DNA from: a bacterium
GTDB taxonomy: Bacteria > Patescibacteriota > Minisyncoccia > Phycocordibacterales > UBA1006
Reading direction: 5' to 3'
Length of the DNA stretch: 64,000 bases
Assembly: GCA_043771175.1 (NCBI GenBank)
Contig: JAYVHO010000006.1
Span: forward strand, 9,800-73,799
Position numbers and translations under genes: made by a program. The notes under the pieces were generated by a model, which worked only from the letters and a program-made list of their open reading frames with translations, searched no databases and was not told the DNA's origin. This document shows positions 18,001-62,888 of the stretch, piece by piece (position 1 is the stretch's first letter; each line of letters begins with the position of its first letter).

Positions 18001-18694
18001 GGTTTGGGGTATTGATTTCTTTCTTGGTGGTAGTGATTCCAAGAATGGTTGCAAATGCTTCGGTGTCAGAAAGCTTGTCACCTTCATTTTTACCAACGAA
18101 GTCAAAATCTGCGATTTTTATTTTGATTTGGTTATCAGCAATTACTGATACTGGTTGTGGATTGATTACTGAATCAAGAATTGATACATCAGTGTTTTCT
18201 GGTGTAACTTCTGGCACAACAGGTGTGTCAGTTGGTGGTGTTGTAGGTGTAGTGGTGTCAGCAGGGACATTGGCGGGAATATCCAATGGTGGCGCATTCG
18301 GTTCTGAACCCGTGACCGACTGGTCTGCAGAAGTTTCTGTTACAGGATTAGTGGCAGGAACTACAACTTCTGAAGAAGAAGTATTGTCCGCAGGTGTTGC
18401 GTCAGGAGTGGTTGCAACCGCAGCAGGAGCCTCAGCAGATGGAACAGTCTCTATTGTTTGTGGTGCAGCATTTAATGTTGCATCTTGTCCGTTATCAACT
18501 GAAGAGGTGTCTGCAGATGGAGCAGCAGCTTCTTGTGCGTAAACTTCGACAACGGGTAAAAAAGAAGTAACCAAAAAACTTACCGCAAGTACGGTAGAAA
18601 GTACCTTGGTTAAGGTAGACGCAGAAGTAGTGGTAGTCTTTTTACCACGGATACTTTTGGTACTTGATTGAAAAACTTTAAAGAATGAATTCAT
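1..18694 (-). CDS. Giant secreted cell-surface protein (N-terminal >6,200 aa; 3' end beyond window): signal peptide, T/P/A/E-rich stalk, >=8 tandem modules with LamG/ConA-like lectin jelly-roll signature
   Basis: Hand translation of the minus strand from ATG at 18694..18692 gives MNSFFKVFQSSTKSIRGKKTTTTSASTLTKVLSTVLAVSFLVTSFLPVVEVYAQEAAAP... (N-terminal TM/signal, AQE cleavage-like site). An in-frame TAA lies 9 codons upstream of this ATG. Spot-checks of the frame (lines at 1, 5101, 9001, 12601) show no tta/cta/tca triplets in the codon phase. Recurrent module signature: ...TFAQKTPAAPGGVSTGL(K/R)AWYKAD.GVYSD... W.DQSGNGN... L.FDG.DD.L ... G.IAE.I.Y...LS..E..KIESYLA.KYG.TL, at least 8 times. 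The ORF track omits it because no stop codon falls in the window. Confidence 0.85.
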   Translation of the reverse strand, partial: MNSFFKVFQSSTKSIRGKKTTTTSASTLTKVLSTVLAVSFLVTSFLPVVEVYAQEAAAPSADTSSVDNGQDATLNAAPQTIETVPSAEAPAAVATTPDATPADNTSSSEVVVPATNPVTETSADQSVTGSEPNAPPLDIPANVPADTTTPTTPPTDTPVVPEVTPENTDVSILDSVINPQPVSVIADNQIKIKIADFDFVGKNEGDKLSDTEAFATILGITTTKKEINTPNPEANSGISGAIGNILNTNTEVDPSDYSDIGTDTAKVNAIADDLINDSNDIGKFITLTATQKEVAPEAVDGETAPVAPTTAPQIITIPAEDISFEVGSVIMAFPLRDAAPGTYTIAGSILNPITGEVETFSQDFTWGVLSMNLDQNTYTVGETGNISIGVLDDAGAPVCEATNSLSITTPAGTTETVTPIDTGKCVTFDSNNTVADYTYDYIFGQSGTYIFNLTTDNGSGAKTLTKTVVVAESAKATIERIIATRLYPIGKSPASVTVRFGEDFTGSIKELAPADFDIEGVTAVISRASTPEVVAPAETTAPEVTLPAIIEQIPAGETVVITPEAPSVTTETTSSTEVAPATVEAPVASSEVTFPEVAPETVEAPTVIEQIQNVIENIFSGTEEVSADDTTLSTEISTENNGKVITVKDVAAQAGDILTISYTYDAPDVSPMYYTIGGLSFVNTDGIEVFNEGRTWGIANDNPVEVPDANLVGWWRADKDTYTDAGGTTPTTNGSAVYTWKDASILENTVQHPTLSSRPLYRDATTSEAVNYHPTLDFDGDDLLYRTNTIFPTATSAGSLFVVGKHDTSTSSWDSAVELGNDTLILGTLAERPAMFSNVSTPNPTYGYPMMVPGAGMLQSWDWNGGTDSTVNMRTNGFNSVSTVWDMTSMNTSNFHIGGNNDTWLGSISEMIVYKEQLSQSNRERIESYLAIKYGITLAQQGTNFASNAYNNTTTSATNTGSIGQTFTADYSGTVNSVSFTVSTSNSAPSATVYLCDASVSATATTCTAGNPGVGKTNKVATLPTNPSINTTATVQFDAGFAVTAGTTYVIHVKPASGTLVLNSDTTNNHYANGTMINQDTVAAATDMDFSVDGYRTGGRDYVSSGNQVVFDASEGIDISANTSNVVDANIATTASDDYVYNVHAIAKDNALLLTNTKSKAEGEAVSFLTTEAESTGLLDDKEFMFVGSTNAPAATIVVTDMPATGIPTATNSRTSREWRVQKNAIVNNVVTVDPAMGTFKLTFDLDAMNISPANVSGFRLVVDDNGNFASGTQTVYPTSGEPTYNSTDNSVSFTGVSLVDGQYFTMVLPRTAPGGVTSGLRAWYKADAGTFTTTANTTVATDGASMASWKDQSGNGFNLTTQQANPEFRSATNTLAINYNPVVDFEDAENDILTTTATNLLPTGTTLSNWETYNVASQETQGTVSHSGLWGGQGTNFILSLSNTTLYHDSGTTVSVPHTTLGTVLGQPYLYNTADYSTGSFIGQQIQQNGKTVAQNASYSPITPSTAAMNFGSYTTSEQNFDGAVGEMVFYNSQHTAAEINKINSYLAFKYGITQVGGELQLTNNQDALVSTSVGQVFTAKTNAAITNVSFMTRSATANSSNLNLYICTGAIVSNPNATNVAACIASPAYSQAVGTVTYGAGLSGLLSVVPVSTKFTISITTPYTVAAGTSYALVLGDTTAAGKTVALRSNSTDIYPGTGNTAFNAAGSLSPNDLYFEYTTNSPTYFASNGSTMMWNKDLSGASTHNLGIAGVGRDDVSGLLKYKTTSQSVTGSPIIEVVNQNSTTVADMEFLSVGGDSAAVGVQNSELPAAGLPVYTNGRIVREWQVQKIGDVGTVNVSLDLAAHNAGATDMSQVRLLIDADANFAAGATISPITPTVSGTVITFSGVAFANGDYFTIALPNNAQAPGGVASGLKLWLRADKDVYTDTLGTTAATAGTDVALIKDQSGNGNNFSDGLSGGIPRLIVDANANYQQTLQFCGVNASTNFVFGNNTCAAESDNLYDANGILGTGTTYTNSSKYFFYMSDEQGTNDWLLSENTTLSADGFATIALQTGPNYYSRLGDATTNEVIVSAANIGMSDHTYYLTSEVGSTTNDGDGTIGQRVKKDGRVFTNSLDATQVSFAGTGTQMVLGATASNTSSMTGRIGEVITYAQGSIQTAAETQRIESYMALKYGKTLSNVDTLSSIDEGKYILSDGTTTVWDGSLTGGIAGADAAFHYNVAGLVRDDISALDQRIARSINNDNTMSIALDNNFTAANSDTVARPTQLATNKQAIMWGHNGGTQYFDTAVTTTNTNTRMNRVWKVKMTGLASRAVNIQFSNPSVMRLKNGQQYVILESATANMASPTELATATAVASGTTSLVTFAGVTLTTAKFYSLATKMIAPGGVTSKVINGVRSQIYIDNTWSDSFVSPTNWYANDALALENVGTGTSFAAPIMTSYADHIQGTNLGSVANGQWDDNYAEEFNGYIVIPTTGTGYTFTLDAGSATGNVDDAAQLWVDINADGLLDDTERIINIGSVSTATSASLTLTTPSAGLMRFRLRHKENATTDSIGISWTKTGTGAFARTALDSDDFRVEAPLAMWFKADAGAYDDYWTTKADPAVDNDKVNTWENSALVPNNDLVDAVTFVDGTGANYNSATGASGINFNPSLNVTSASLGIFTNARNTNATNGNQDANDYFGWTNGLAYMGGANTSFVVGMDPTVTASSEMFYSYGYDNGAGATNTSTTTFGRELTSGQLEIGQSSSNTANSYTGVIQSNVPFMFTGTTAAVTNPVGAVDSTVQTTYGYGLQRGTGTNTQRLHLGVSTRLYEVGDYADFGGHNFNGNISEIIHYPAQLSGTERYKVESYLAMKYGTTLLPFDRANGIETVVEGDYLSSTGAVVWDGNDTSVAATSFTGGHTKALNTENTQMSDVRFNTVTTAGCPSLGSCMYTSGTTTSGKVYQYTLSTPYVVSTAVYASKQFTVNAEVATPTALAFSNDGTKMYVAGAVGVVYQYTLTTAFDVSTAQTYAASGSKSLTIPSTTSVGMTFNNDGTKIFVLQGGNDFVYQFNLATAYDISTGVNSGITFDASNQDSNTNGLAFDATGTRMYIVGYTNDFVHQYVLTTAFDISTAIQVARFAVGTQDGQMAGIAFNPSGSIMVLVGNLSTTAVYDYDIPLVSIGVNALYSNEVTAIAQDNASGLLQLKSKSQMKNGMITIGTPSSLGDGDFLIVGNNGQDASTFISTGAYDGLGTATGYQRLNRSWKTQVTSTPGTVKIEVDTNDTDLDLPNITGPDGKLYLLGDITATGNGFADETPVVMYDDGTNGDTSANDNVWTAQTVTLVNTEVFTFGQKTPAAPGGVSTGLNLWVNAGSKVYSDTGSTLTTNGQSVRQWNDLSGNSNNMSQSTVGQRPIFAGSTSANAINFQPSLTFDAVDDNLQLAGSTSILSNVTNGRIFSMVTKPNLTGTWTSLFEQGAGNTNDPMFGIYDTDPVWYDNSASNRTSSIPMPAANTPFMLGFKWNTPGVGVGVTASVNGISETLAGFNNTFGAGPTKIGSENTETWDGNIAEIMSYNVEPSVTEVKKIRSYMAFKYGTTWLQPGDAQILNNVNMTIAADQGQQITAPSTGYINEITLKTGITTANGATGTLSICAGAVLASACAAAPAYSQSVTNIPTAVSTVFTIPLNTAFPITAASLYTFVLSTTSGTNINLIAQNTNAYAGGTATFASSVFAGDLFFTYSMTSPDYLASNGTTKMWDTTVAGTYNQDIAGFGKDTGSDLLTTKSKQQSINGIVTIAANVPADLADLEFVSISNKNSGFTTGWTTTAAPSGYQRIGTSAGQREWFYQENGDGVTTLNLSVDTTDTDSNISEVNGTDGKLYFLYDQNNDNDLLDATDLAPMYDDGTNGDTTNGDGIYNIQINLATATEFTFAQITPAAPGGVSGNLRAWYAADQDVTTVSDNDSNSLLDVNYWKDQSGNQIDMGMSTVSAYPDLYTGASAGAYNYNPTLLFDGSNDRLQDMDGDGPIGLISNAESFGADNLDTYTYIVSQTNSTVSSTLFHQGLSGGKKYQADSIVSGREYLFSGNATCSNAASSGCMYVNYYDSGNVLQRPYISTYGTQTTNATGKFIRKNGKVMISNSTDEIGKNVNDTTAISGTSDDFEIGAAEGTQYFQGRIAEMVFYVGNNSGQTDLEQTKIQSYLALKYGMTLSNVDPSGNGAAGSNDNDLFAGGFGEGDYILSDGTTSVWNGHTDGDDTGDSVGAEQATIVGGVAVSYHNDVAGIGRDDAGGLNRKIAHGVNDDDIVTMALDNHFFIANNDPTRTQMNANKTWLVWGNDNGSRFFDTPITHGSVNLRIGRTWKTKTTGTITTNPYVRIGGSSARAIDLIPGQTYTLLTDADGVFDSGSTAIATAIPQFKTAADVSTLYLDFGQVNFSTNAYFTVATYQSAPGGVVADYMPGLRVEAYNEFPSGNTSATDNENSIGKDSPYSVPHMMWYTSDFANIDDASISNIGLSNEEGSMEVYGQMNMTDTTQKVFNYTGTTNDMFSLWIDDQPIITGVATANSEGVYTPTSTGWKNVRVKWSNRGGTGDFNLTWKNNASTCSGSCINIPNNLLRVYAPQTAWYKAGTKMFTDTTGAAATTTDGTHIIRWDSVSPIINAAGRTDGGNTYENDSVNLVNGNPIINNNSDKFLVGTNVSSSLESTRTIYTWGLPMMNAARTLYSAVTAATPTATQFLFTYGDDVTPTARYPYGTENAAGEIRVRDHQINNMEVTPGTIEQQSANTPFTMGASYSGGDSAATTTNTNSIWGNGKRTAYLTTNISMQTNDQLELRINGSNYDTADWTGRVGEHILYPWELTSVQRQKVDTYLSLKYGTTYIGGEDQLSLNATNTASTNVGQVITASVTGGINNITLQTGATANAAGGTLHICTGAVAMATCIASPISATHYSQVLTTIPTALNTNFTIPLTTPYEVIAGTQYTFLITAPTNVFLRIQSSDVYLGGNQAGFGTQDLYFDVDIKPDLVNGSGTTIWSYDTYHNYVTGIMKDNASALEQLSSLSTANTSTLGNGGIVRISKATLANNDALIIGDNNGSATTWTSSATIPSGYMRPGTASSVIEWRAREIGTAANNYTIAVNLENTQGTGSRNLPDVTALNNTLYTIFDSNEDGLLTDEVLGTGILAMNDDGINGDTTANDRIYSLSNVALDDTNKFTFAQNTLPTPGAVSTGIMAWYKANKGVYSDVNGTTPAVDGNSMNRWNDMSGNDKWMQMYSTAPTYRTTTAANPSTTTNTAINFNPVMYASGDGYAMQVPGARGGVLGTNTYNDVYAYVVVNNLDLSGNEDIYNHANTGTALNFRLGVSNTTTRLTNSAGTTLDSTNANAGTNTLTPYIWKTQVKTTGGNRMSIARNGAELTSSASGSAVTGNNGVSYLGVSNGWYNGGIAEAIYYGADQSSGTSQQKIESYLAIKYGITLNKGIDQNLQNDSNGGSGQTVGWGQTFTASATGQIGSITLQTNSSGTQNSGPGTLYLCNGASATSGTCIASPVYTQAFTAPTTASTVYTVQLTTPFNVTSGSAYTMVFGQTTGSFYNRFQSTSTYSGGTLLTSVGTQPTQDIYFAANYLANDYVLSNGTSKVYTALNNAYSQSITAIARDDAADLSQLKSRSVNATAIWTLGNGNNLSTPSTFSADLSGASIASNGADARVWTTTGAPTGKQVITRNWKFEKTGTVGTVTLAINTENTNSSNISDIPTISSANGILYLVVDDEAAATANFTDETGGTVIPMFDDGTNGDQTAGDKVYTINNLTLASGQYFTVAQNIPPAPGGYSTGMKAWYKADTGVYSDTGATVPAVQGTNQAVRWLDLSGNNKTLVAANIPDYQNATSSQAINFNAAVDFVGGNNEYMDVPASIGGILNADTYNDLHLYMVSAADSSGENNEMLNQTGMNGSGYFGIRGISQGGANHYIYGTSAQSVNFGNAGTTFPSTHMWHMYNKTTGPDEVSLLRDNKVMITYPVASPMTSTNAYTRLGGGQFAYSDQKMGEIIVYAGDNTSGDINQRIESYLALKYGLVMDQTVPTDYIASDSTTKMWSSDSLVTEATYVNDIFGIGRDDASGLSQVKSKSRSQADTGIITLSTTSGTIPTDKSFMTMADNGGSASFVTGQAPTGYQILGKRWQVQQPSSDIGNVTLQIDVNDSQFNIANASNFSLMIDTDNNGTYFNESVSNGGVYPLYDDGTNGDVTANDSVWTIQNVDFQTLTNAQE

Positions 18695-27232: not shown

Positions 27233-27802
27233 ATGAACACAGAAAAAGCCTCTTCAGATGACTCATTCATGAGATTTATCTTTATTATTATGTTGGTGGC
27301 ACTACCACTTCGAATCTTTGTTTTTTGGCCGTTTGTCGTAAGTGGAGAATCAATGGTACCAACTTTTGAGGACAAACAATATCTTATCGTTGACAAGATA
27401 AGCTACAAACTTCATGACGTACAACGTGGTGATGTAGTGGTGTTTAAATATCCCAAAGATCCAACTCGCTATTTTATTAAACGTATCATTGGGCTTCCAA
27501 CAGAATCAGTTCTTGTTAAAAATGGCATAGTAACTATTTCATCAGCTGACAAAACCACCATAGCAACACTGTCAGAACCATATATTTCTGATACGACTAC
27601 CGGAACCACGGAACTTTCTTTAGGAGAAGATGAATATTTTGTAATGGGAGACAATCGTCCACAGAGTTCTGACTCTCGTGTATGGGGACCAGTAGAGAAA
27701 AATCTTATCATTGGAAAAACACTGTTTCGACTGTTGCCACTCAGTAGAGCTTCAGTATTTCCTGGTAAAACCATTTATCAAGATACAGAGCCAACCAATT
27801 AG
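27233..27802 (+). CDS. lepB: Signal peptidase I
   Basis: ...FVVSGESMVPTFEDKQYLIVDKISYK...RGDVVVFKYP...YFIKRIIGLPTESV...FVMGDNRPQSSDSRVWGPV... (S26 boxes B-E, catalytic Ser in SM and Lys in VKR). Confidence 0.9.
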   Translation: MNTEKASSDDSFMRFIFIIMLVALPLRIFVFWPFVVSGESMVPTFEDKQYLIVDKISYKLHDVQRGDVVVFKYPKDPTRYFIKRIIGLPTESVLVKNGIVTISSADKTTIATLSEPYISDTTTGTTELSLGEDEYFVMGDNRPQSSDSRVWGPVEKNLIIGKTLFRLLPLSRASVFPGKTIYQDTEPTN

Positions 27803-50458: not shown

Positions 50459-50531
50459 ATAATTTGTGAGTATTACGAATATGTCATAAGTATATCACTA
50501 TAAAAAAACACCCTCGAAAGGATATTTTTTG

Positions 50532-50616
50532 TGCCCAAGAGAGGACTTGAACCTCCATGCCCGTTACAGGCGTTACCACCTCAAGGTAGTGCGTCTACCA
50601 GTTTCGCCACCTGGGC
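50532..50616 (-). tRNA. tRNA-Leu (anticodon GAG), long variable arm
   Basis: Minus-strand GCCCAGGTGGCGAAACTGGTAGACGCACTACCTTGAGGTGGTAACGCCTGTAACGGGCATGGAGGTTCAAGTCCTCTCTTGGGCA. Anticodon loop TTGAGGT. Class II variable arm. CCA not encoded. Confidence 0.8.
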
Positions 50617-57209: not shown

Positions 57210-57797
57210 ATGATAGATAGAATTTCAGGTATGGTGGTTGATTCAGACTTTACGGCAAAAATTTGTATAGAAACACCGTCGGGGATTACATATGGAGTTT
57301 CTACCACTAAAGAAATCACCACCGTGACCATTCCTTCAAATATTTATGTATATATTCACGAGGTAATCAAAGAAGATGCTCATGATTTATATGGCTTTAC
57401 GGCCCCATTTGAACGCAGTGTGTTTAAAAAATTATTGAGTGTTTCTGGGCTTGGTCCAAAATCTGCACTTTCCATACTTTCCAATCTTGGAATCTCTGGA
57501 CTCTTTAATGCACTGATTTCAAAAGATGCCACGTCGCTGGCTAAAACTCCAGGGATTGGTAAAAAGACCGCAGAAAAAACCATTATAGAGCTATTCTCGT
57601 TTGCGCAAGACCACCAAGACGTTATTACTGACGAGGTTAAAAATCCTCTCTACCACGAGGCCTTTGAAGCACTGGTTTCACTGGGTTATGATGACCATTT
57701 GGTAAAAGATGTTCTTTCAAAACTTGATTTTAATACCAATGCCACACTTTCAACGGTTATTCGTGAAGGAATTAAAAACCTTTCACATAAGAAATAA
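57210..57797 (+). CDS. ruvA: Holliday junction DNA helicase RuvA
   Basis: MIDRISGMVVDSDFTAKICIETPSGITYGV...FKKLLSVSGLGPKSALSILSNLGISGLFNALISKDATSLAKTPGIGKKTAEKTIIEL (two HhH motifs). Confidence 0.88.
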   Translation: MIDRISGMVVDSDFTAKICIETPSGITYGVSTTKEITTVTIPSNIYVYIHEVIKEDAHDLYGFTAPFERSVFKKLLSVSGLGPKSALSILSNLGISGLFNALISKDATSLAKTPGIGKKTAEKTIIELFSFAQDHQDVITDEVKNPLYHEAFEALVSLGYDDHLVKDVLSKLDFNTNATLSTVIREGIKNLSHKK

Positions 57798-57910: not shown

Positions 57911-57982
57911 GCCCCTGTAGTTCAATGGATAGAATAGGTCCGTCCTAAGGATTTGATGGTGGTTCGATTCCACCCATGGGCA
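57911..57982 (+). tRNA. tRNA-Arg (anticodon CCT); one C-U mismatch in acceptor stem (5:68)
   Basis: GCCCCTGTAGTTCAATGGATAGAATAGGTCCGTCCTAAGGATTTGATGGTGGTTCGATTCCACCCATGGGCA. Anticodon loop GTCCTAA. Confidence 0.7.
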
Positions 57983-58077
57983 CAAGATATCGCCATTTAA
58001 ACCGCGAATAAAACGTTCTTCTTCACACCCGTTTGGGAGTTTAGGATTTACATCAAATTCTTTGGTGTATCCATTAT

Positions 58078-58437
58078 CTATAAATTAAATTCTGCTTCCA
58101 AACTTTTAATAAAGTTTTCAATAGAAACTAAATCAGTCATAAAATAAGTTAATAAACTTTTGCCAGTATATCCTGCTCCAATTCTTAGAACAACCTTATA
58201 GTGTCCCAGATTGTCTAATTTAATGAGATTAAAGTATTGATCAGAATCATAATCATTAAACTCAAATATTTTTAGATTTAATTTTGAGCTTAATTCATCT
58301 TTATAAAAATTGAAGTTTGATTTACCGCTAAATTGAGAATTTTCTATTTGCCAAACACATTCAATGTTTCTATCATATAACTTAAATTCTGAAAAAATAA
58401 TTGATGAATCAAGACCATTTAATTTAATATTACTCAT
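58078..58437 (-). CDS. Immunity-like small cytoplasmic protein (paralog of 59654..60016 and 58963..59427); starts 4 nt after orphan CT stop
   Basis: 119 aa; ...FEFNDYDSDQYFNLIKLDNLGHYKV... aligns with FIESNESDYNNFKLIIGPDLVIQ of the 120-aa protein. No signal peptide or TM. Confidence 0.6.
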   Translation of the reverse strand: MSNIKLNGLDSSIIFSEFKLYDRNIECVWQIENSQFSGKSNFNFYKDELSSKLNLKIFEFNDYDSDQYFNLIKLDNLGHYKVVLRIGAGYTGKSLLTYFMTDLVSIENFIKSLEAEFNL

Positions 58438-58441
58438 AGGT

Positions 58442-58810
58442 TTATTTTATTAATCCAATAAATTTAAAATCATCGACCGCTTTAAAATTTCCAAATTCAT
58501 CAAGTAGTGCATTAAAATGGATTTCAATTTTAATACCGTCTGAAAGCTCTTTACTATAAGCAAATTTATTCCAGCCTAGCCAACGAGTATCTGTTAGTGT
58601 TGGCATTTTCAGTTTTATACCAAGACCTTTCGGATTTGCAAGAATTTCTTTCATTACTAATTCCTCTTGGAGCGTATTAGCAACATTTCGACCCGTCGAT
58701 CCTAAGCCTAATGGTTTAAGTGGTATTTGTGTAGCTATTGAAACCTCTTTTAGAGTATTATTTACGATCGCCTTTACCTCACTATTCCTTCACTTGCTGC
58801 TTTTATTAAA
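58442..58810 (-). pseudogene. Orphan effector C-terminal cassette: 116-bp pre-toxin homology (58695..58810) + 1-nt frameshift + intact 70-aa variable CT ORF (58442..58654) ending DDFKFIGLIK
   Basis: Upstream in-frame extension reads RNSEVKAIVNNTLKEVSIATQIPLKPLGLGSTGRNV...MKEILANPKGLG... The effector reads GNSEVKAIVNNTLKEVSIVTQIPLKPLGLGSTATQKTW... Frame broken by deletion (attacc to attcc) at ~58787 giving a TGA at 58790..58792. CT is ~50% identical to the effector CT (TDTRWLGWNKFAYSKELSDGIKIEIHFNALLDEFGNFKAVDDFKF vs NDSRWLGWSKLSYSRKVIDRGVEYLVEIHFNAKKINGTITLVDDFKF). Confidence 0.75.
58695..58810. repeat. Copy B of the 116-bp repeat, upstream of orphan CT ORF
   Basis: See copy A. Homology decays on both sides (58685-58694 unrelated; downstream of 58810 only patchy similarity, e.g. 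aggtcaagtg). Confidence 0.9.
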
Positions 58811-58962
58811 GACAGGTCAAGTGTTGTATATTGAGTTATCTGATGAGTATGATAATCAAGGAGAATAATTGAAGTAAAAGAGGTGAGGAAGCTATGAGTT
58901 TATTCTTTAATTAAGCGTATCTTAAAAACTCGCAAGAGTGAGTTTCTATGCTTTGATTTCTG

Positions 58963-59427
58963 TTATGGTTGGATATTTTCTTTCAAAACAGTCCACGGGT
59001 TTTCTCCACGTGCTTTTTTTGTTTTTATAACATAGTCATAAAATTTTTTAAAGTCGCCTTCTTGTCCTATAATATCGTTTAGCATTTGTTGTGGATCATT
59101 TTCAAATAATTCACGAGGGCCTATAATTAATTTTATTTCTGGCCAAGGTCTAGTTGGCTCTATTATTATCCAGTTTTCTGGAATTGAATTATCTATTATT
59201 TCAAAATAAATAGAAAACTCCGTAAAACCATTTTCGTCGGCATACGAAATACTACCTAAATCAAAAGATTTTTCACTATGCTTAAATGGTTTTGAAACGA
59301 CAATAAACCAAACTTCTTTAATTTCTCCTATTTTAATACGCTCATTTGTTCTTTGTAAATCCTTATTACCTATGTATATAAGTGCTTCCGACTCAGTAAT
59401 TTCATTTCTAATTGCTTTAATTTTCAT
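58963..59427 (-). CDS. Immunity-like protein paralog (154 aa)
   Basis: ...IPENWIIIEPTRPWPEIKLIIGPRELFENDP... shares the KLIIGP motif region with the 120-aa protein. Starts 3 nt after the stop of a 28-codon CT remnant. Own terminator AAACTC..GAGTTTTT at ~58928..58955 (minus strand). Confidence 0.6.
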   Translation of the reverse strand: MKIKAIRNEITESEALIYIGNKDLQRTNERIKIGEIKEVWFIVVSKPFKHSEKSFDLGSISYADENGFTEFSIYFEIIDNSIPENWIIIEPTRPWPEIKLIIGPRELFENDPQQMLNDIIGQEGDFKKFYDYVIKTKKARGENPWTVLKENIQP

Positions 59428-59430
59428 AAA

Positions 59431-59520
59431 TTATTGGGTTATATTCTCAAGGAATTTAAAATCATCAATGGTGAAATAGCAAACAACCACGCTTTCAGCG
59501 AGATCACCATACACTTTTTA
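59431..59520 (-). pseudogene. Remnant of a third effector C-terminal cassette (28 codons ending ...VCYFTIDDFKFLENITQ*)
   Basis: Minus-strand translation: K V Y G D L A E S V V V C Y F T I D D F K F L E N I T Q stop. It shares the terminal (V/I)DDFKF motif and the 'stop + 3-4 nt + ATG' junction seen at the two other CT/immunity junctions. Confidence 0.5.
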
Positions 59521-59653
59521 AGTTTTTCTTTATTTGCTTGATTCATATTATTAATTTTGATTATAAACTTGATTAACTAATTCTGACCAAAAAGGTATAT
59601 ACTCGGCATTTTTTAATAATTCATAGTTAATTTTTCCTGGTTGTTAATGTAGA

Positions 59654-60016
59654 CTATGATTTTTCATCATACACATTTTCTAATAATTTGTTATTTAAAT
59701 GCTGACCCGCTATTGTATCTTTTTGAACAATTTCATAAAGATTGCCTTTCTGTATAACCAAATCAGGACCAATAATCAATTTAAAATTATTATAATCACT
59801 CTCATTGCTCTCAATAAATCTAATTTTCCAATCTTTGTTTAATTCATTGTTAATAAATACTAGATACTTTAAATCCAAACAAATAATTGATTTATCAATT
59901 ATAACACCAAAAGTAAACTCACCACTAGTAAGAAGATACAGAAATGCAACATCAAAAACCATTTCACTATCTTTCTGTGAATAATCAATATTTGTATTTT
60001 TTAGTTTAACTTTCAT
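59654..60016 (-). CDS. Putative cognate immunity protein of the effector (120 aa), starts 4 nt after effector stop
   Basis: MKVKLKNTNIDYSQKDSEMVFDVAFLYLLTSGEFTF...FIESNESDYNNFKLIIGPDLVIQKGNLYEIV... Cytoplasmic. Paralogous to 58078..58437 and 58963..59427. Confidence 0.6.
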   Translation of the reverse strand: MKVKLKNTNIDYSQKDSEMVFDVAFLYLLTSGEFTFGVIIDKSIICLDLKYLVFINNELNKDWKIRFIESNESDYNNFKLIIGPDLVIQKGNLYEIVQKDTIAGQHLNNKLLENVYDEKS

Positions 60017-60020
60017 ATAT

Positions 60021-62888
60021 TTATTTTACTATAAATTTAAAATCATCTACTAAGGTTATAGTTCCATTAATTTTTTTTGCATTAAAATGAATTTCGACCA
60101 AGTACTCAACACCTCTATCAATAACTTTTCTTGAATAGGATAATTTACTCCAGCCTAGCCACCTTGAATCATTTAATGAAGTAATTATAGTTGCGCTATT
60201 TAGATTAGGATTTGAAAGTATTTCATCCATAGCTAATTTTTCAGCAACATTCTTCGCCTCAATATAAGATTCATTAGTTTTTAGTGCTATTGACCACGTT
60301 TTTTGGGTTGCTGTCGATCCTAAGCCTAATGGTTTAAGTGGTATTTGTGTAACTATTGAAACCTCTTTTAGAGTATTATTTACGATCGCCTTTACCTCAC
60401 TATTACCTTCACTTGCTGCTTTTATTAAATTATCGGCATTAGACCCAAATTTAGCCATAGTAGCTGCTTTGAATAAAGAAAGGTCAAGTGCAGTAAGGGC
60501 AATATTTGGATATCTCATGACATACGCATCAATCCATTCTTTGTCTGTCGCAGGTACACCAAATACATTAGATCCAGTATATGCTATTTTGATTTGATTT
60601 ACTGATACCACAGTACCTATTGCTCCAAGAGTCCCAAGAGAATAAGTCACCGCAGCAGGACATCCCACCCCGGCCGAATAAAAACATATAGCCGCTGACC
60701 CCCCTACAAGTATAACCGTTGCTCCTGCCATTGTTACTATACTTCCGATACTGGTGAATTCTGCCTTTGTCTCTGCTTTTGATTGAGATAACTGCGTACG
60801 GAAATCAGAAACAGCAAGATCTTCTGAAATTTTGTCGAATGCTCGGGCAAGGGAAATTTCAGAATCAATAAGGGATTGAGTTTCACTTGTATTCGTATAT
60901 GTTATAGTCGTAAACCCAAAACGAGCCTTTTCCGTGTCGATAGCCATCTTTGCTGTTTTTATTACAGCGTCTTGTATTTCAGCACTTTTTAATTTACTAA
61001 TTTTATAGGTGAGTGTGTTTATTGTTATTTGATTATTGGTTTTATACGTAGATAATACGTTTGTCTTTGCAGTTATTTGAGATTTAATGCTTGAAATATC
61101 AGTAGTAAGTGTGGCCAATAATGACTTAAGTCTTTGTATTTCTGTATCTCCAAATGCTTTTAGTTTCTGTGCTTTAGCAAAATCTGCAGAGGCATTTGAT
61201 ACTTCTGCTTTTGCGTCTGTTTTTTGATTATTAAGTGAATTTATTTGCGATTGATAAGAATTTATTTGGTTGTTCCAATAGGTAACATTGGATTTGGCAG
61301 TAGATGCTTGATTAGTGAAACTTATATATGAATTGTAATAATTATTTGATATAGCAGTATATCCTTTTTTATTTTTGTAGGTATTGTAATTATTTAAGGC
61401 CGCTGATGCTTGAGCGGTATATGAATTTGCTTGATTGGTATATGTTGCTACATTATTATTTGCTGAACTAATTGATTTACTGATATTAGCAATTTGAGAA
61501 TCCAGACTCGATAATTTTGCGTTCAGATTTGCAGATAGCTTTGAAACCGTTGCGGATGATGCAGTTACTTGTGATCCAACCGCACCTAATGAGTAAGTAA
61601 CTCCATTTTGAATGAATGATCCACTATTAATTTTATTGTTTAAATCTGTTGCAGACGCTTGTTTGGTAGCAAGAGAAGAATTTAAAACAGAAAGATCAGA
61701 ATTATATGCCGTTATTTTTGTATTAATTGCATCTAATTGAGATTTGTACGTAGCAATACTAGAAAGAGATCCACCACCTTCTGTAAGCAAGGCTTGCAAA
61801 TTAGAAATGGCTTGTATATACAAAGATTGATTTCTGGCTATTTCATTAAGACTTTTTAAGATATCAACAGTACCGACAGCACCTTGGTTATCTTTGTCTG
61901 TTTTTGCGGTTACATCAACGATACTATCAAGTGTTTTTTCTTGAGTAAGTGCTAGTGGAGTCTTCAAACCATTTCCCAATTTTGTATAACACGCCGCTCG
62001 TGCAGTATTACGTGTTGTCAGTGTTGTTATTTTCATTGCTGATGCAATACATACTTTAAAAGCATTAACTATATTTTGAGTTGAAGCATCAGATCCATCT
62101 ACGGAAATTGCTGCAATGTATACAGGAACATACTTCCCCCATATGGTCATTGCTTCTTCGTCTGATATATCAAAACCTTGTGGGTTTGTATCAGAAACCA
62201 CGAGTGCAGAGCCTGTATATATATGTTCAAAATCTTTTACGGAATATTTAATATTTCCCGCTTCTGTATCTGATAGTTCAACAATTCCTTTCACAGAATT
62301 ATATTCGCGAATTACTGAAAAGTGTCCTCCGACTTCTTTTTTTTCATCGTGAATTAATACGGGGTCACTAGTTTCACTTATATATGAAAGGATTTCGTTC
62401 GAGTTCCATTTTTTTAAGAAAACTTTTTGTGAAGTAAGTTGTGAAGCAGCTTGTTTAAGAGCAAATAAATTTGTTCCTTTTTCACTATTGAGATTTTCTG
62501 ATGCGATAAGGGCAAGTACTTCACTTTCAGAAATATCATCACCCAATTGTGTAAGCAGGGTTGCCAACGATGCCGGACCGCAATAATAGTCTTTTGATTG
62601 TCGTACAACGGCAGTAAAATCTTTTTTTGAATCATTTTCCGCTGTGTCGTCTCCAAGATCAAGATCTGCGTCGTCTTCTTCAGGTTCGGTTTCTAGCACC
62701 TGTGTGTCTGGTGCTGTTGATTCCGTTAATACCGTTGGTGGAATTACTGATGTTGATAATTCTTCGGCATGTACCATGAATGGCATACCAACCATCGCAA
62801 TTAATTGTAAAAATGCAAGGGATTTTGTAGTATATAATTTCATATGATGATATAAAATAAATTTATAATGATAATATATACCTCCCAA
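60021..62888 (-). CDS. Secreted polymorphic-toxin-like effector: signal peptide - acidic linker - papain-like C39-type peptidase domain - ~370-aa coiled coil (N/S/Q/T-rich) - glycine-zipper hydrophobic segment - conserved pre-toxin region - variable C-terminal domain (…DDFKFIVK)
   Basis: Probable start MKLYTTKSLAFLQLIAMVGMPFMVHA/EE at 62843. C39-like: ...VVRQSKDYYCGPASLATLLTQLG... (Gln/Cys) ...EVGGHFSVIREYN... (His). Coiled coil: ...LSSLDSQIANISKSISSANNNVATYTNQANSYTAQASAALNNYNTYKNKK... Hydrophobic: SIGSIVTMAGATVILVGGSAAICFYSAGVGCPAAVTYSLGTLGAIGTVVSV. Pre-toxin: SEVKAIVNNTLKEVSIVTQIPLKPLGLGST, duplicated at 58695..58810. Confidence 0.8.
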   Translation of the reverse strand: MGGIYYHYKFILYHHMKLYTTKSLAFLQLIAMVGMPFMVHAEELSTSVIPPTVLTESTAPDTQVLETEPEEDDADLDLGDDTAENDSKKDFTAVVRQSKDYYCGPASLATLLTQLGDDISESEVLALIASENLNSEKGTNLFALKQAASQLTSQKVFLKKWNSNEILSYISETSDPVLIHDEKKEVGGHFSVIREYNSVKGIVELSDTEAGNIKYSVKDFEHIYTGSALVVSDTNPQGFDISDEEAMTIWGKYVPVYIAAISVDGSDASTQNIVNAFKVCIASAMKITTLTTRNTARAACYTKLGNGLKTPLALTQEKTLDSIVDVTAKTDKDNQGAVGTVDILKSLNEIARNQSLYIQAISNLQALLTEGGGSLSSIATYKSQLDAINTKITAYNSDLSVLNSSLATKQASATDLNNKINSGSFIQNGVTYSLGAVGSQVTASSATVSKLSANLNAKLSSLDSQIANISKSISSANNNVATYTNQANSYTAQASAALNNYNTYKNKKGYTAISNNYYNSYISFTNQASTAKSNVTYWNNQINSYQSQINSLNNQKTDAKAEVSNASADFAKAQKLKAFGDTEIQRLKSLLATLTTDISSIKSQITAKTNVLSTYKTNNQITINTLTYKISKLKSAEIQDAVIKTAKMAIDTEKARFGFTTITYTNTSETQSLIDSEISLARAFDKISEDLAVSDFRTQLSQSKAETKAEFTSIGSIVTMAGATVILVGGSAAICFYSAGVGCPAAVTYSLGTLGAIGTVVSVNQIKIAYTGSNVFGVPATDKEWIDAYVMRYPNIALTALDLSLFKAATMAKFGSNADNLIKAASEGNSEVKAIVNNTLKEVSIVTQIPLKPLGLGSTATQKTWSIALKTNESYIEAKNVAEKLAMDEILSNPNLNSATIITSLNDSRWLGWSKLSYSRKVIDRGVEYLVEIHFNAKKINGTITLVDDFKFIVK
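60313..60429. repeat. Copy A of 116/117-bp near-identical repeat (pre-toxin recombination anchor), inside effector gene
   Basis: gtcgatcctaagcctaatggtttaagtggtatttgtgtaActattgaaacctcttttagagtattatttacgatcgcctttacctcactattAccttcacttgctgcttttattaaa versus 58695..58810: 1 substitution + 1 single-base indel. Confidence 0.9.

Follow-up and report, generated by a model that had tools for sequence, protein, structure and literature searches.

A probable 3' relic of a displaced toxin domain beside an orphan immunity gene in a polymorphic toxin array

The 64-kb stretch of DNA analysed here (the window) contains a polymorphic toxin gene followed on the minus strand by a series of small genes. Directly upstream of one of these, an intact gene of 154 codons, lies a very short reading frame that carries the pentapeptide DDFKF close to its stop codon, as do the two recognisable toxin C-terminal domains (CTs) of the same locus. 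The question is what this short frame is and why it has kept that terminus. The first-pass annotation had called it a third, almost completely eroded CT, and had suggested that the last ~15 codons of every CT share a motif, (T/A)(L/V/I)(V/D)DDFKF, that may serve as a 3' recombination or translational-coupling element. The order on the minus strand is the main toxin gene with CT1, I120, a 181-nt spacer, the CT3 relic, I154, the orphan CT2 and I119, after which comes a tRNA-Arg gene on the opposite strand:

60021..62888, minus strand: main polymorphic toxin gene, 955 aa (first TTG) or 940 aa (ATG 62843, public assembly calls).
About 60326..60024, minus strand: CT1 toxin domain, located after the GLGST junction and ending LVDDFKFIVK-stop (98.5 bits with the toxin-family HMM).
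59654..60016, minus strand: I120, the CT1 immunity gene, 120 aa, its ATG 4 nt beyond the CT1 stop (60020..60017).
59473..59653, minus strand: spacer between I120 and the relic, with no detectable toxin homology.
59431..59472, minus strand: probable CT3 relic, codons T-I-D-D-F-K-F-L-E-N-I-T-Q and TAA, with DDFKF at 59466..59452.
58963..59427, minus strand: I154, orphan immunity gene, an intact 154-codon ORF.
58442..58830, minus strand: orphan CT2 module, a complete DDFKF-family toxin domain ending AVDDFKFIGLIK-stop (114.7 bits with the toxin HMM; repeat families D1, D9 and D6).
58078..58437, minus strand: I119, the CT2 immunity gene, 119 aa, its ATG 4 nt beyond the CT2 stop (58441..58438).
57911..57983, plus strand: tRNA-Arg(CCT), found by ARAGORN and by Rfam RF00005 (54.4 bits), which bounds the cassette array.

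The main toxin gene encodes an N-terminal Peptidase_C39 domain (Pfam PF03412, 4.4e-15, aa 94-234), followed by coiled-coil and hydrophobic helices. The orphan CT2 begins with ~135 nt of homology to this gene, in which 58695..58810 matches 60313..60429 (117 nt at 98%), and the DNA identity between the two stops exactly at the GLGST junction. A 1-nt deletion in this 5' homology block breaks the frame of CT2. Cassette exchange by recombination is possible at this locus, as the near-identity of this block shows. An ENA metagenome contig has the same sequence as the window.

The minus strand of 59517..59434 reads KVYGDLAESVVVCYFTIDDFKFLENITQ; a stop (TAA at 59433..59431), 3 nt (ttt at 59430..59428) and the ATG of I154 at 59427 follow. 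The DDFKF terminus and the stop-3nt-ATG arrangement described by the first-pass annotation were thus borne out by translation, and the 4-nt junctions that it gave for the two other CTs are as stated, so that the stop-to-ATG gaps in the window are 4 nt for CT1/I120, 3 nt for the relic and I154, and 4 nt for CT2/I119. An in-frame TAA at 59520..59518 closes the frame upstream and limits the relic ORF to at most 28 codons; the translation of 59652..59428 ends with a stop, KVYGDLAESVVVCYFTIDDFKFLENITQ, a second stop and F. The relic and I154 are in the same reading frame. The part that is recognisable as toxin-derived comprises only ~13 codons, TIDDFKFLENITQ (59472..59434), and nothing else of a third toxin CT can be recognised. 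It was identified by translation, by pattern count, by the HMM alignment tIDDFKFl and by membership in the 19-nt repeat family D4. The relic ends like the members of the toxin family, with [VI]DDFKF, 0-8 further residues and a stop (TIDDFKFLENITQ-stop). With the toxin-family HMM the whole of 59517..59434 scored 6.5 bits and ranked third of 2430 six-frame segments, and in a three-frame test tIDDFKFl alone was aligned, at 3.5 bits.

Might the match at 59452..59466 be a chance similarity in AT-rich DNA? The relic taken alone is not significant by the family HMM (E=1.3), and the string DDFKFLEN was met 52 times, by chance, in 241 million records of JGI metagenomes. In the window, however, the DDFKF-coding degenerate pattern GAYGAYTTYAARTTY has three matches on both strands (60047..60033, 59466..59452 and 58474..58460), against a chance expectation of 0.01 from dinucleotide shuffles, and none of 100 shuffles gave three matches. 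The six-frame translation contains the pentapeptide at these three sites and at no other. Each of them is at the end of a toxin CT, 3-6 codons before a stop, with a small gene 3-4 nt beyond that stop. The first-pass annotation had allowed that such coding sequence might turn up by chance away from small genes; none does in the window. Moreover, the match in question is on the right strand and in the right frame, 6 codons from the stop and, within a toxin array, immediately before a gene of the cognate immunity family. Chance similarity is effectively refuted.

What the motif represents can be judged from its relatives. A profile search seeded with CT1, CT2 and one relative found 82 database proteins that share the layout GLGSTGR..NLxEQLAMKEIxSNP..DxRWxGWxK..IH[YF]..(A)[VI]DDFKF, 0-8 residues, stop. 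A genome scan by pattern and tblastn, with one genome per species, gave 63 loci, mostly in Bacteroidota and also in Pseudomonadota, Actinomycetota and Acidobacteriota (Pseudomonas, Achromobacter, Photorhabdus and Microbacterium are among the genera named). The carriers include Rhs-repeat and filamentous-haemagglutinin (CdiA-like) proteins; since the domain is found at the end of these carriers, it is regarded as a genuine polymorphic-toxin CT. Single family members are labelled in their source as MafB or filamentous hemagglutinin, or with a PT-HINT Pfam domain. The domain has a size of ~95 aa. In an alignment of 42 sequences P49, W65, W68, K70, H89, D103, D104 and F105 are invariant, and the junction residues G10, G12, S13, T14 and G15 are nearly so; GLGST(GR) precedes the domain in CT1, in CT2 and in the database family. 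An AF2 model (mean pLDDT 77.9, core 86-92) shows a single helix and four strands, the last of which (98-109) contains DDFKF.

No model of Pfam or NCBIfam matches the domain, and no sequence relative was found in the PDB. A Foldseek search of the PDB with the model gave nothing significant (best E=0.03, TM 0.35), so that the model has no significant structural match to a solved toxin, including known toxin folds such as the BECR-type RNases. Tox-REHH/STox_30 was considered, but no evidence of identity emerged: by its description it is a histidine-rich HNH-like DNase defined by Arg, Glu, His, His, and only one His is invariant in the DDFKF domain. The literature, searched for "DDFKF", yielded one unrelated paper only.

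The three CTs of the window have in common [VI]DDFKF, that is, 6 codons; at the DNA level this is 14 nt of exact identity, and 19 nt at 89-95% identity. Compared in this way, the CT 3' ends share these 6 codons and not the ~15 given by the first-pass annotation. That DDFKF seems "conserved" from one CT to the next follows from its place in the toxin fold, of which it forms the invariant last beta-strand. Its five codons occur as 18 distinct 15-mers among 64 copies, and since the codons vary synonymously across the family, conservation acts on the protein and not on the DNA. DDFKF is thus the near-invariant C-terminal signature of a polymorphic-toxin domain that lacks a Pfam/NCBIfam model, not a locus-specific element.

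This bears on the proposal that CT cassettes are exchangeable between two borders, the 5' pre-toxin homology and, as a 3' recombination site, the DDFKF-coding core GATGATTTTAAATT. The core is the only sequence common to all three CT 3' ends, and the 5' block is indeed present at the orphan CT2. However, 14 nt is short for homologous recombination, and conservation that tolerates synonymous change is what is expected of a protein feature. A crossover at the end of the toxin would also join the new toxin to the old immunity gene, which should be self-poisoning, and a crossover at DDFKF would leave no relic, yet a relic is seen. In addition, the same motif is found on Rhs and CdiA-type carriers of unrelated phyla. 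Because the motif is short and protein-conserved, and a crossover there would mispair toxin and immunity gene, we regard a recombination site as very improbable.

The spacing between the stop and the next ATG is likewise generic. Of 64 toxin ends, 61 have an ORF of 90 codons or more whose start falls -4 to +18 nt from the toxin stop, and for 48 of them this start falls within -4 to +4 nt, which makes the tight stop-ATG junction a trait of the family. The reading as a recombination or coupling element is not supported and is replaced: the conserved C-terminal strand of the toxin family and generic operon spacing explain the same features more simply.

The proteins encoded downstream of family toxins cluster as one family, into which I120 and I154 were drawn. 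A profile of 58 immunity sequences from other genomes, with the window sequences left out, was compared with 347 window ORFs: I120 ranked first (19.2 bits) and I154 second (14.4 bits), and the next, unrelated ORF scored 3.5 bits. None of 1000 residue shuffles matched the profile score of I120 or I154. In hhalign I154 was matched to the immunity family with P=1.2e-4 and a probability of 55%, its core YFEIIDNSIPENW...KLIIGPRELFEN being aligned to LFEvIDnklPsnW...ilGYpeL of the family, and phmmer with I154 found matches to 8 downstream genes of other loci. I154 has the core motif LFEvIDnxlPxnW...(I/V)xGYxEL, reading YFEIIDNSIPENWIIIEPTRPWPEIKLIIGPRELFEN, and the position after a toxin. Although the scores are weak in absolute terms, position and motif together make it likely that I154 belongs to the immunity family of DDFKF toxins.

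I119 falls into a separate, distantly WapI-like immunity family, where it groups with the genes downstream of toxins in loci L005 and L024. By phmmer it matched the gene after the CT2-like toxin in L005 with 4.4e-17, and its cluster-mate in L024 scored 28.4 bits against Pfam PF24716 (WapI; cutoff 27); I119 itself had no Pfam match at E<=1. Because I119 groups apart from I120 and I154, one toxin family is served by at least two unrelated immunity families. The system thereby resembles WapA/WapI of Bacillus subtilis, in that the second immunity family (I119, L005, L024) has a member above the PF24716 cutoff. It differs in that I119 has no Pfam match and that I154 and I120 come from an unrelated immunity family. 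The DDFKF pattern scan recovered no Bacillus loci, and thus gives no evidence that the toxin is WapA-CT-like.

Has the body of CT3 decayed in place, or has it been cut away? In frameshift-tolerant alignments of 59653..59470 to 6 family toxins, between 31 and 83 of 200 shuffles reached the observed score. A collinear PSSM test of three conserved blocks gave the same picture, with 292 of 1000 shuffles reaching the observed value, whereas the positive control, CT2, scored 83 bits. Taken block by block, the best score in the spacer was -9.1 bits for NLxEQLAMKEIxSNP (reached by 111 of 1000 shuffles), -12.5 bits for DxRWxGWxK, block B (744 of 1000), and 1.2 bits for IH[YF], block C (287 of 1000). 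Nor was 5' homology to the main gene found in 59473..59653.

Several vestiges seen by eye were rejected. NNQEKLTMN, FWSEL and KVYGD..VVVCYF were at chance level in both the frameshift-tolerant and the block-PSSM tests, as was a 16/18-nt match to the EKLAMD codons of CT1 (EKLTMN, 59636..59619, repeat D19). VVVCYF as a vestige of IH[YF] has Cys at the position of the invariant His and lies 2 codons before the Ile of IDDFKF, which leaves 4 codons between this Cys and the first Asp. Among the family tails listed, those with the shortest loops have His and Asp 11 codons apart.

Because no residual toxin signal was found in the 184 nt upstream (59653..59470), CT3 is to be called truncated and not eroded in place. 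Of the "almost completely eroded" CT of the first-pass annotation, the 3' end remnant is retained and the erosion is given up. DDFKF would have been spared by a breakpoint that fell a few codons before it. The perfect preservation of the relic's 15 nt could also reflect some other constraint.

Another reading is that selection keeps the relic for cis signals of I154 expression, either an internal promoter or 5' end within the 3' terminus of the toxin, or a mini-ORF (GTG 59514, 27 codons) for termination-reinitiation at the I154 ATG 3 nt further on. The genome offers some grounds for this idea. Shine-Dalgarno sequences are nearly absent (3 of 40 genes), and -10-like boxes crowd 6-9 nt upstream of starts in 18 of 50 genes against ~2 expected. 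At CT1/I120 and CT2/I119, TAAAAT is located exactly 6 nt before the ATG and is built from the last codons of the toxin and its stop. I154 cannot be coupled directly to I120, because 226 nt separate it from the I120 stop. It is conceivable, though doubtful, that in this SD-poor genome with starts of leaderless type the extreme 3' end of a toxin gene doubles as an expression signal of the immunity gene, as a -10 box or a reinitiation platform. If so, displacements would survive only when the terminus is left in place, and the relic would be a functional minimum and not neutral debris.

The relic itself fits this idea poorly. I154 has no canonical box at 6-9 nt; it has only a TATAAC at a distance of 12 nt, in which the decisive last position is C. 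The region contains 24 promoter-like sites, which equals the 24.5 expected from shuffles, and the one sigma-70-like site in the spacer (59589..59560, TGGTCA-18-TATAAT) is not above chance. The spacer matches no Rfam family, and its RNA fold z-score of +1.09 is nothing unusual. The 3-nt spacing fits the geometry of coupling, but the frame is open for 28 codons only and has no ATG, GTG 59514 being the sole start candidate. Translation of the mini-ORF is hypothetical, and the DDFKF codons themselves would be unneeded for such signals. We therefore consider retention by selection for such signals unlikely.

The first-pass annotation had proposed a search for full-length versions of CT3, and this search came back empty in the databases covered: among the 82 matches of the profile search, which included the relic's own words, there was neither a full-length CT3 nor a CT3-like tail. 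None of the 52 DDFKFLEN matches in the JGI metagenomes was significant against the toxin profile. L106 and L072, with DDFKFLEN a few codons before a stop, were considered as CT3 candidates and rejected, both being antisense within other genes. The pre-toxin scaffold alignment (A3) found no relatives in the metagenome scan. For I154, a word-indexed search of 5.8 billion clusters and an exhaustive single-sequence phmmer search of 1.84 billion representatives returned I154 itself only. Because the databases searched hold no full-length CT3 and no close relative of I154, the CT3-I154 pair cannot be reconstructed. Four public contigs carry I154, and wherever they overlap the window the identity is 100%; since all four agree with it, no strain variation documents the event. 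The first 114 nt of contig L003 are unrelated to the window, and this contig is probably a chimeric scaffold.

Comparable remnants are found elsewhere. In four other loci longer, 5'-truncated relics of DDFKF toxins were found, each with an immunity-family gene 2-18 nt beyond it:

L045, Pedobacter: relic covering HMM positions 61-117.
L060, Terriglobales: relic covering HMM positions 46-117.
L063, Saprospiraceae: relic covering HMM positions 61-118.
L066, Prevotellaceae: relic covering HMM positions 76-117.

The lengths of these relics are graded, from 42 to 72 codons. The Rhs array of L063 repeats the order of the window: its main gene carries a different CT and is followed by the immunity gene of that CT, after which come a truncated DDFKF relic with an immunity gene and then an orphan that is homologous at its 5' end to the main gene. 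That such relics recur in four loci and that I154 matches the immunity family support the first-pass reading of a third toxin CT that lost its body, kept its immunity gene and records cassette turnover.

A similar displacement is known from the T6SS of Vibrio cholerae. Kirchberger et al. (2017, PMC5361080) describe how an incoming effector-immunity module displaces the old effector and the old immunity gene moves downstream; in one array described there in detail, the 3' end of the old effector was also shifted back, and homology-facilitated illegitimate recombination is the mechanism that they propose. The likeness is that the effector is displaced and the immunity gene, together with the effector 3' end, is retained, as would have happened in the window. 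The secretion context, the toxin family and the phylum are different, however, and no population data order the events here. In the window, moreover, the three cassettes are all of a single toxin family.

Poole et al. in 2011 reportedly described orphan CT/immunity modules of CdiA and Rhs loci. The same pattern is seen in such modules of Rhs and CdiA loci as reported by Koskiniemi et al. (2014, PMC3967940), whom Kirchberger et al. cite. Like those loci, the window has a large carrier, a variable C-terminal toxin after a conserved junction (GLGST here), an adjoining immunity gene and downstream orphan toxin/immunity pairs. The CT is bounded by the junction, an immunity gene adjoins each CT, and CT2 keeps 5' homology that would permit a recombinational swap. 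In contrast, the carrier is neither Rhs nor CdiA and has an N-terminal Peptidase_C39 domain and coiled coils. CT3 also departs from such orphan modules, having lost the 5' homology and nearly the whole toxin, so that it can be neither reactivated nor reused.

Polymorphic toxin CT domain families, with Pfam Ntox/Tox models, are said to have been catalogued by Zhang et al. in 2012. The DDFKF domain resembles catalogued families in being a small C-terminal domain on Rhs or filamentous-haemagglutinin carriers with a small immunity gene next to it. It differs from them in that none of the Pfam and NCBIfam models, with which it was compared, matches it.

Taken together, the locus is a polymorphic toxin array with cassette turnover, which the relic confirms. 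We judge, with a probability of roughly 80%, that 59472..59431 is what remains, without function, of the 3' end of a third toxin CT of the same DDFKF family as CT1 and CT2, whose body was displaced and whose immunity gene, I154, was orphaned. In such a history CT3-I154 would at the start have been a complete toxin-immunity pair. The CT1-I120 cassette may then have entered, anchored in the conserved pre-toxin homology, with an illegitimate join a few codons before DDFKF at its other end; or else the body of an orphan CT3 module may have been lost in a later deletion. The cognate I154 would have been kept intact, as a 154-codon ORF in 36% G+C DNA. Orphaned in this way, it would shield the cell against relatives in which CT3 is still in use. 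This protective role is inferred, as are the sequence of the steps and the kind of recombination involved.

The second of these routes deserves separate mention. According to it, CT3-I154 formerly stood as an orphan module comparable to CT2-I119, complete with 5' homology and toxin domain, and an internal deletion, unconnected with the entry of CT1-I120, later shortened it. The neighbouring CT2 shows that complete orphan modules exist at the locus, relic lengths in other genomes are graded, and an orphan toxin domain expressed without secretion would be a liability, which should favour its deletion. No flanking direct repeats mark a deletion at CT3, however, and the outcome is indistinguishable from that of truncation at displacement. 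We consider such a later deletion possible, well short of probable, and it is a variant of the displaced-toxin explanation and not its contradiction.

In conclusion, the relic with its orphan immunity gene is an ordinary displaced-toxin relic, a well-known by-product of toxin swapping, and it points to no new principle. I154 is an orphan immunity gene whose toxin is present in no public dataset searched. As a by-product of this analysis, a widespread unannotated toxin domain (GLGSTGR...DDFKF-end) and its main immunity family were defined. The domain is carried by Rhs and CdiA-type proteins and, in this organism, by an unusual C39-peptidase-bearing protein. It occurs in at least four phyla and is now open to annotation and testing.

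The main polymorphic toxin of the array carries a Peptidase_C39 domain near its N-terminus, and its carrier is not of the Rhs, CdiA or LXG type. By eye, a hydrophobic segment at the N-terminus resembles a signal peptide, and the Peptidase_C39 domain apparently has the Cys motif (YYCGPASLATLL) as well as the His motif (GGHFSVI). The pre-toxin scaffold of this protein was also found in L005, a database locus from a higher-GC organism.

62843..62140, minus strand: N-terminal region of the main toxin, aa ~1-234

The toxin domains with the C-terminal DDFKF signature are paired with two unrelated immunity families. The main family takes in I120, the immunity gene behind the toxin domain CT1 that ends the main gene, and I154, the orphan immunity gene behind the truncated relic. 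I119, which follows the orphan toxin domain CT2, belongs to a WapI-like family.

58078..58437 (window): I119, WapI-like family
L005:768-1145: WapI-like family
L024: WapI-like family

At both intact toxin-immunity junctions, the last toxin codons and the TAA stop form the hexamer TAAAAT, which is located exactly 6 nt before the ATG of the immunity gene. This is the favoured -10 position in the source genome. The junction of I154 has no TAAAAT at 6 nt.

60017..60028, minus strand: TAAAAT junction of CT1 and I120
58438..58449, minus strand: TAAAAT junction of CT2 and I119

Shine-Dalgarno motifs are nearly absent from the genome, as judged over the whole window, with a motif in only 3 of 40 long genes. 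TANNNT -10-like boxes cluster 6-9 nt 5' of the start codons, in 18 of 50 window genes versus about 2 expected (examples of these boxes or of the Shine-Dalgarno scarcity are at window positions 27233, 50035, 47023, 31302 and 35528). Because Shine-Dalgarno motifs are scarce and the boxes precede the starts at this distance, the sequence suggests that leaderless mRNAs are widespread in the source genome. The window also holds a 6231-codon ORF with its ATG at 18694 on the minus strand, and at 50531..50616 on the same strand ARAGORN reported a tRNA-like gene whose two-base anticodon it left undetermined.

Two arrays in other genomes carry DDFKF toxin sequence.

L063:105-7614: Saprospiraceae Rhs array
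L040:4825-9005: toxin with an immunity-gene array

The gene order of the Saprospiraceae array is the same as that in the window. Its main gene, which bears a different C-terminal domain, and the immunity gene of that domain are followed by a 5'-truncated DDFKF relic of 61 aa with a 129-aa immunity gene, and then by an orphan that repeats pre-toxin sequence of the main gene. In L040, three paralogous immunity genes lie behind a DDFKF toxin of 484 aa. Between the first and second of them are two small ORFs on the minus strand, which resemble a Fic/Doc-type toxin-antitoxin pair. An ORF of ruvA-like appearance lies after these immunity genes; the window array is likewise adjacent to ruvA (57210..57797), though with the orientation reversed.

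In four further loci (L044, L048, L062 and L068), DDFKF toxin domains are broken by single frameshifts or stops just 5' of the motif and are otherwise full length. They are distinct from the truncated relics, and represent either pseudogenes of recent origin or errors of assembly. In the ENA scaffold L003, nucleotides 1-114 have no match to the window and the remainder is 100% identical. The assembly was probably joined chimerically here, at a point within I120.

The 5' part of CT2 is homologous to the main gene, in a 92-nt block (99% identical) and a 24-nt block (100% identical) with a 1-nt deletion between them.

58695..58830 versus 60313..60497: CT2 5' homology to the main gene, by repeat comparison

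An in-frame fusion of the main gene to CT2 would arise only from crossovers inside the 92-nt block. Such a fusion would remove CT1, I120 and I154.
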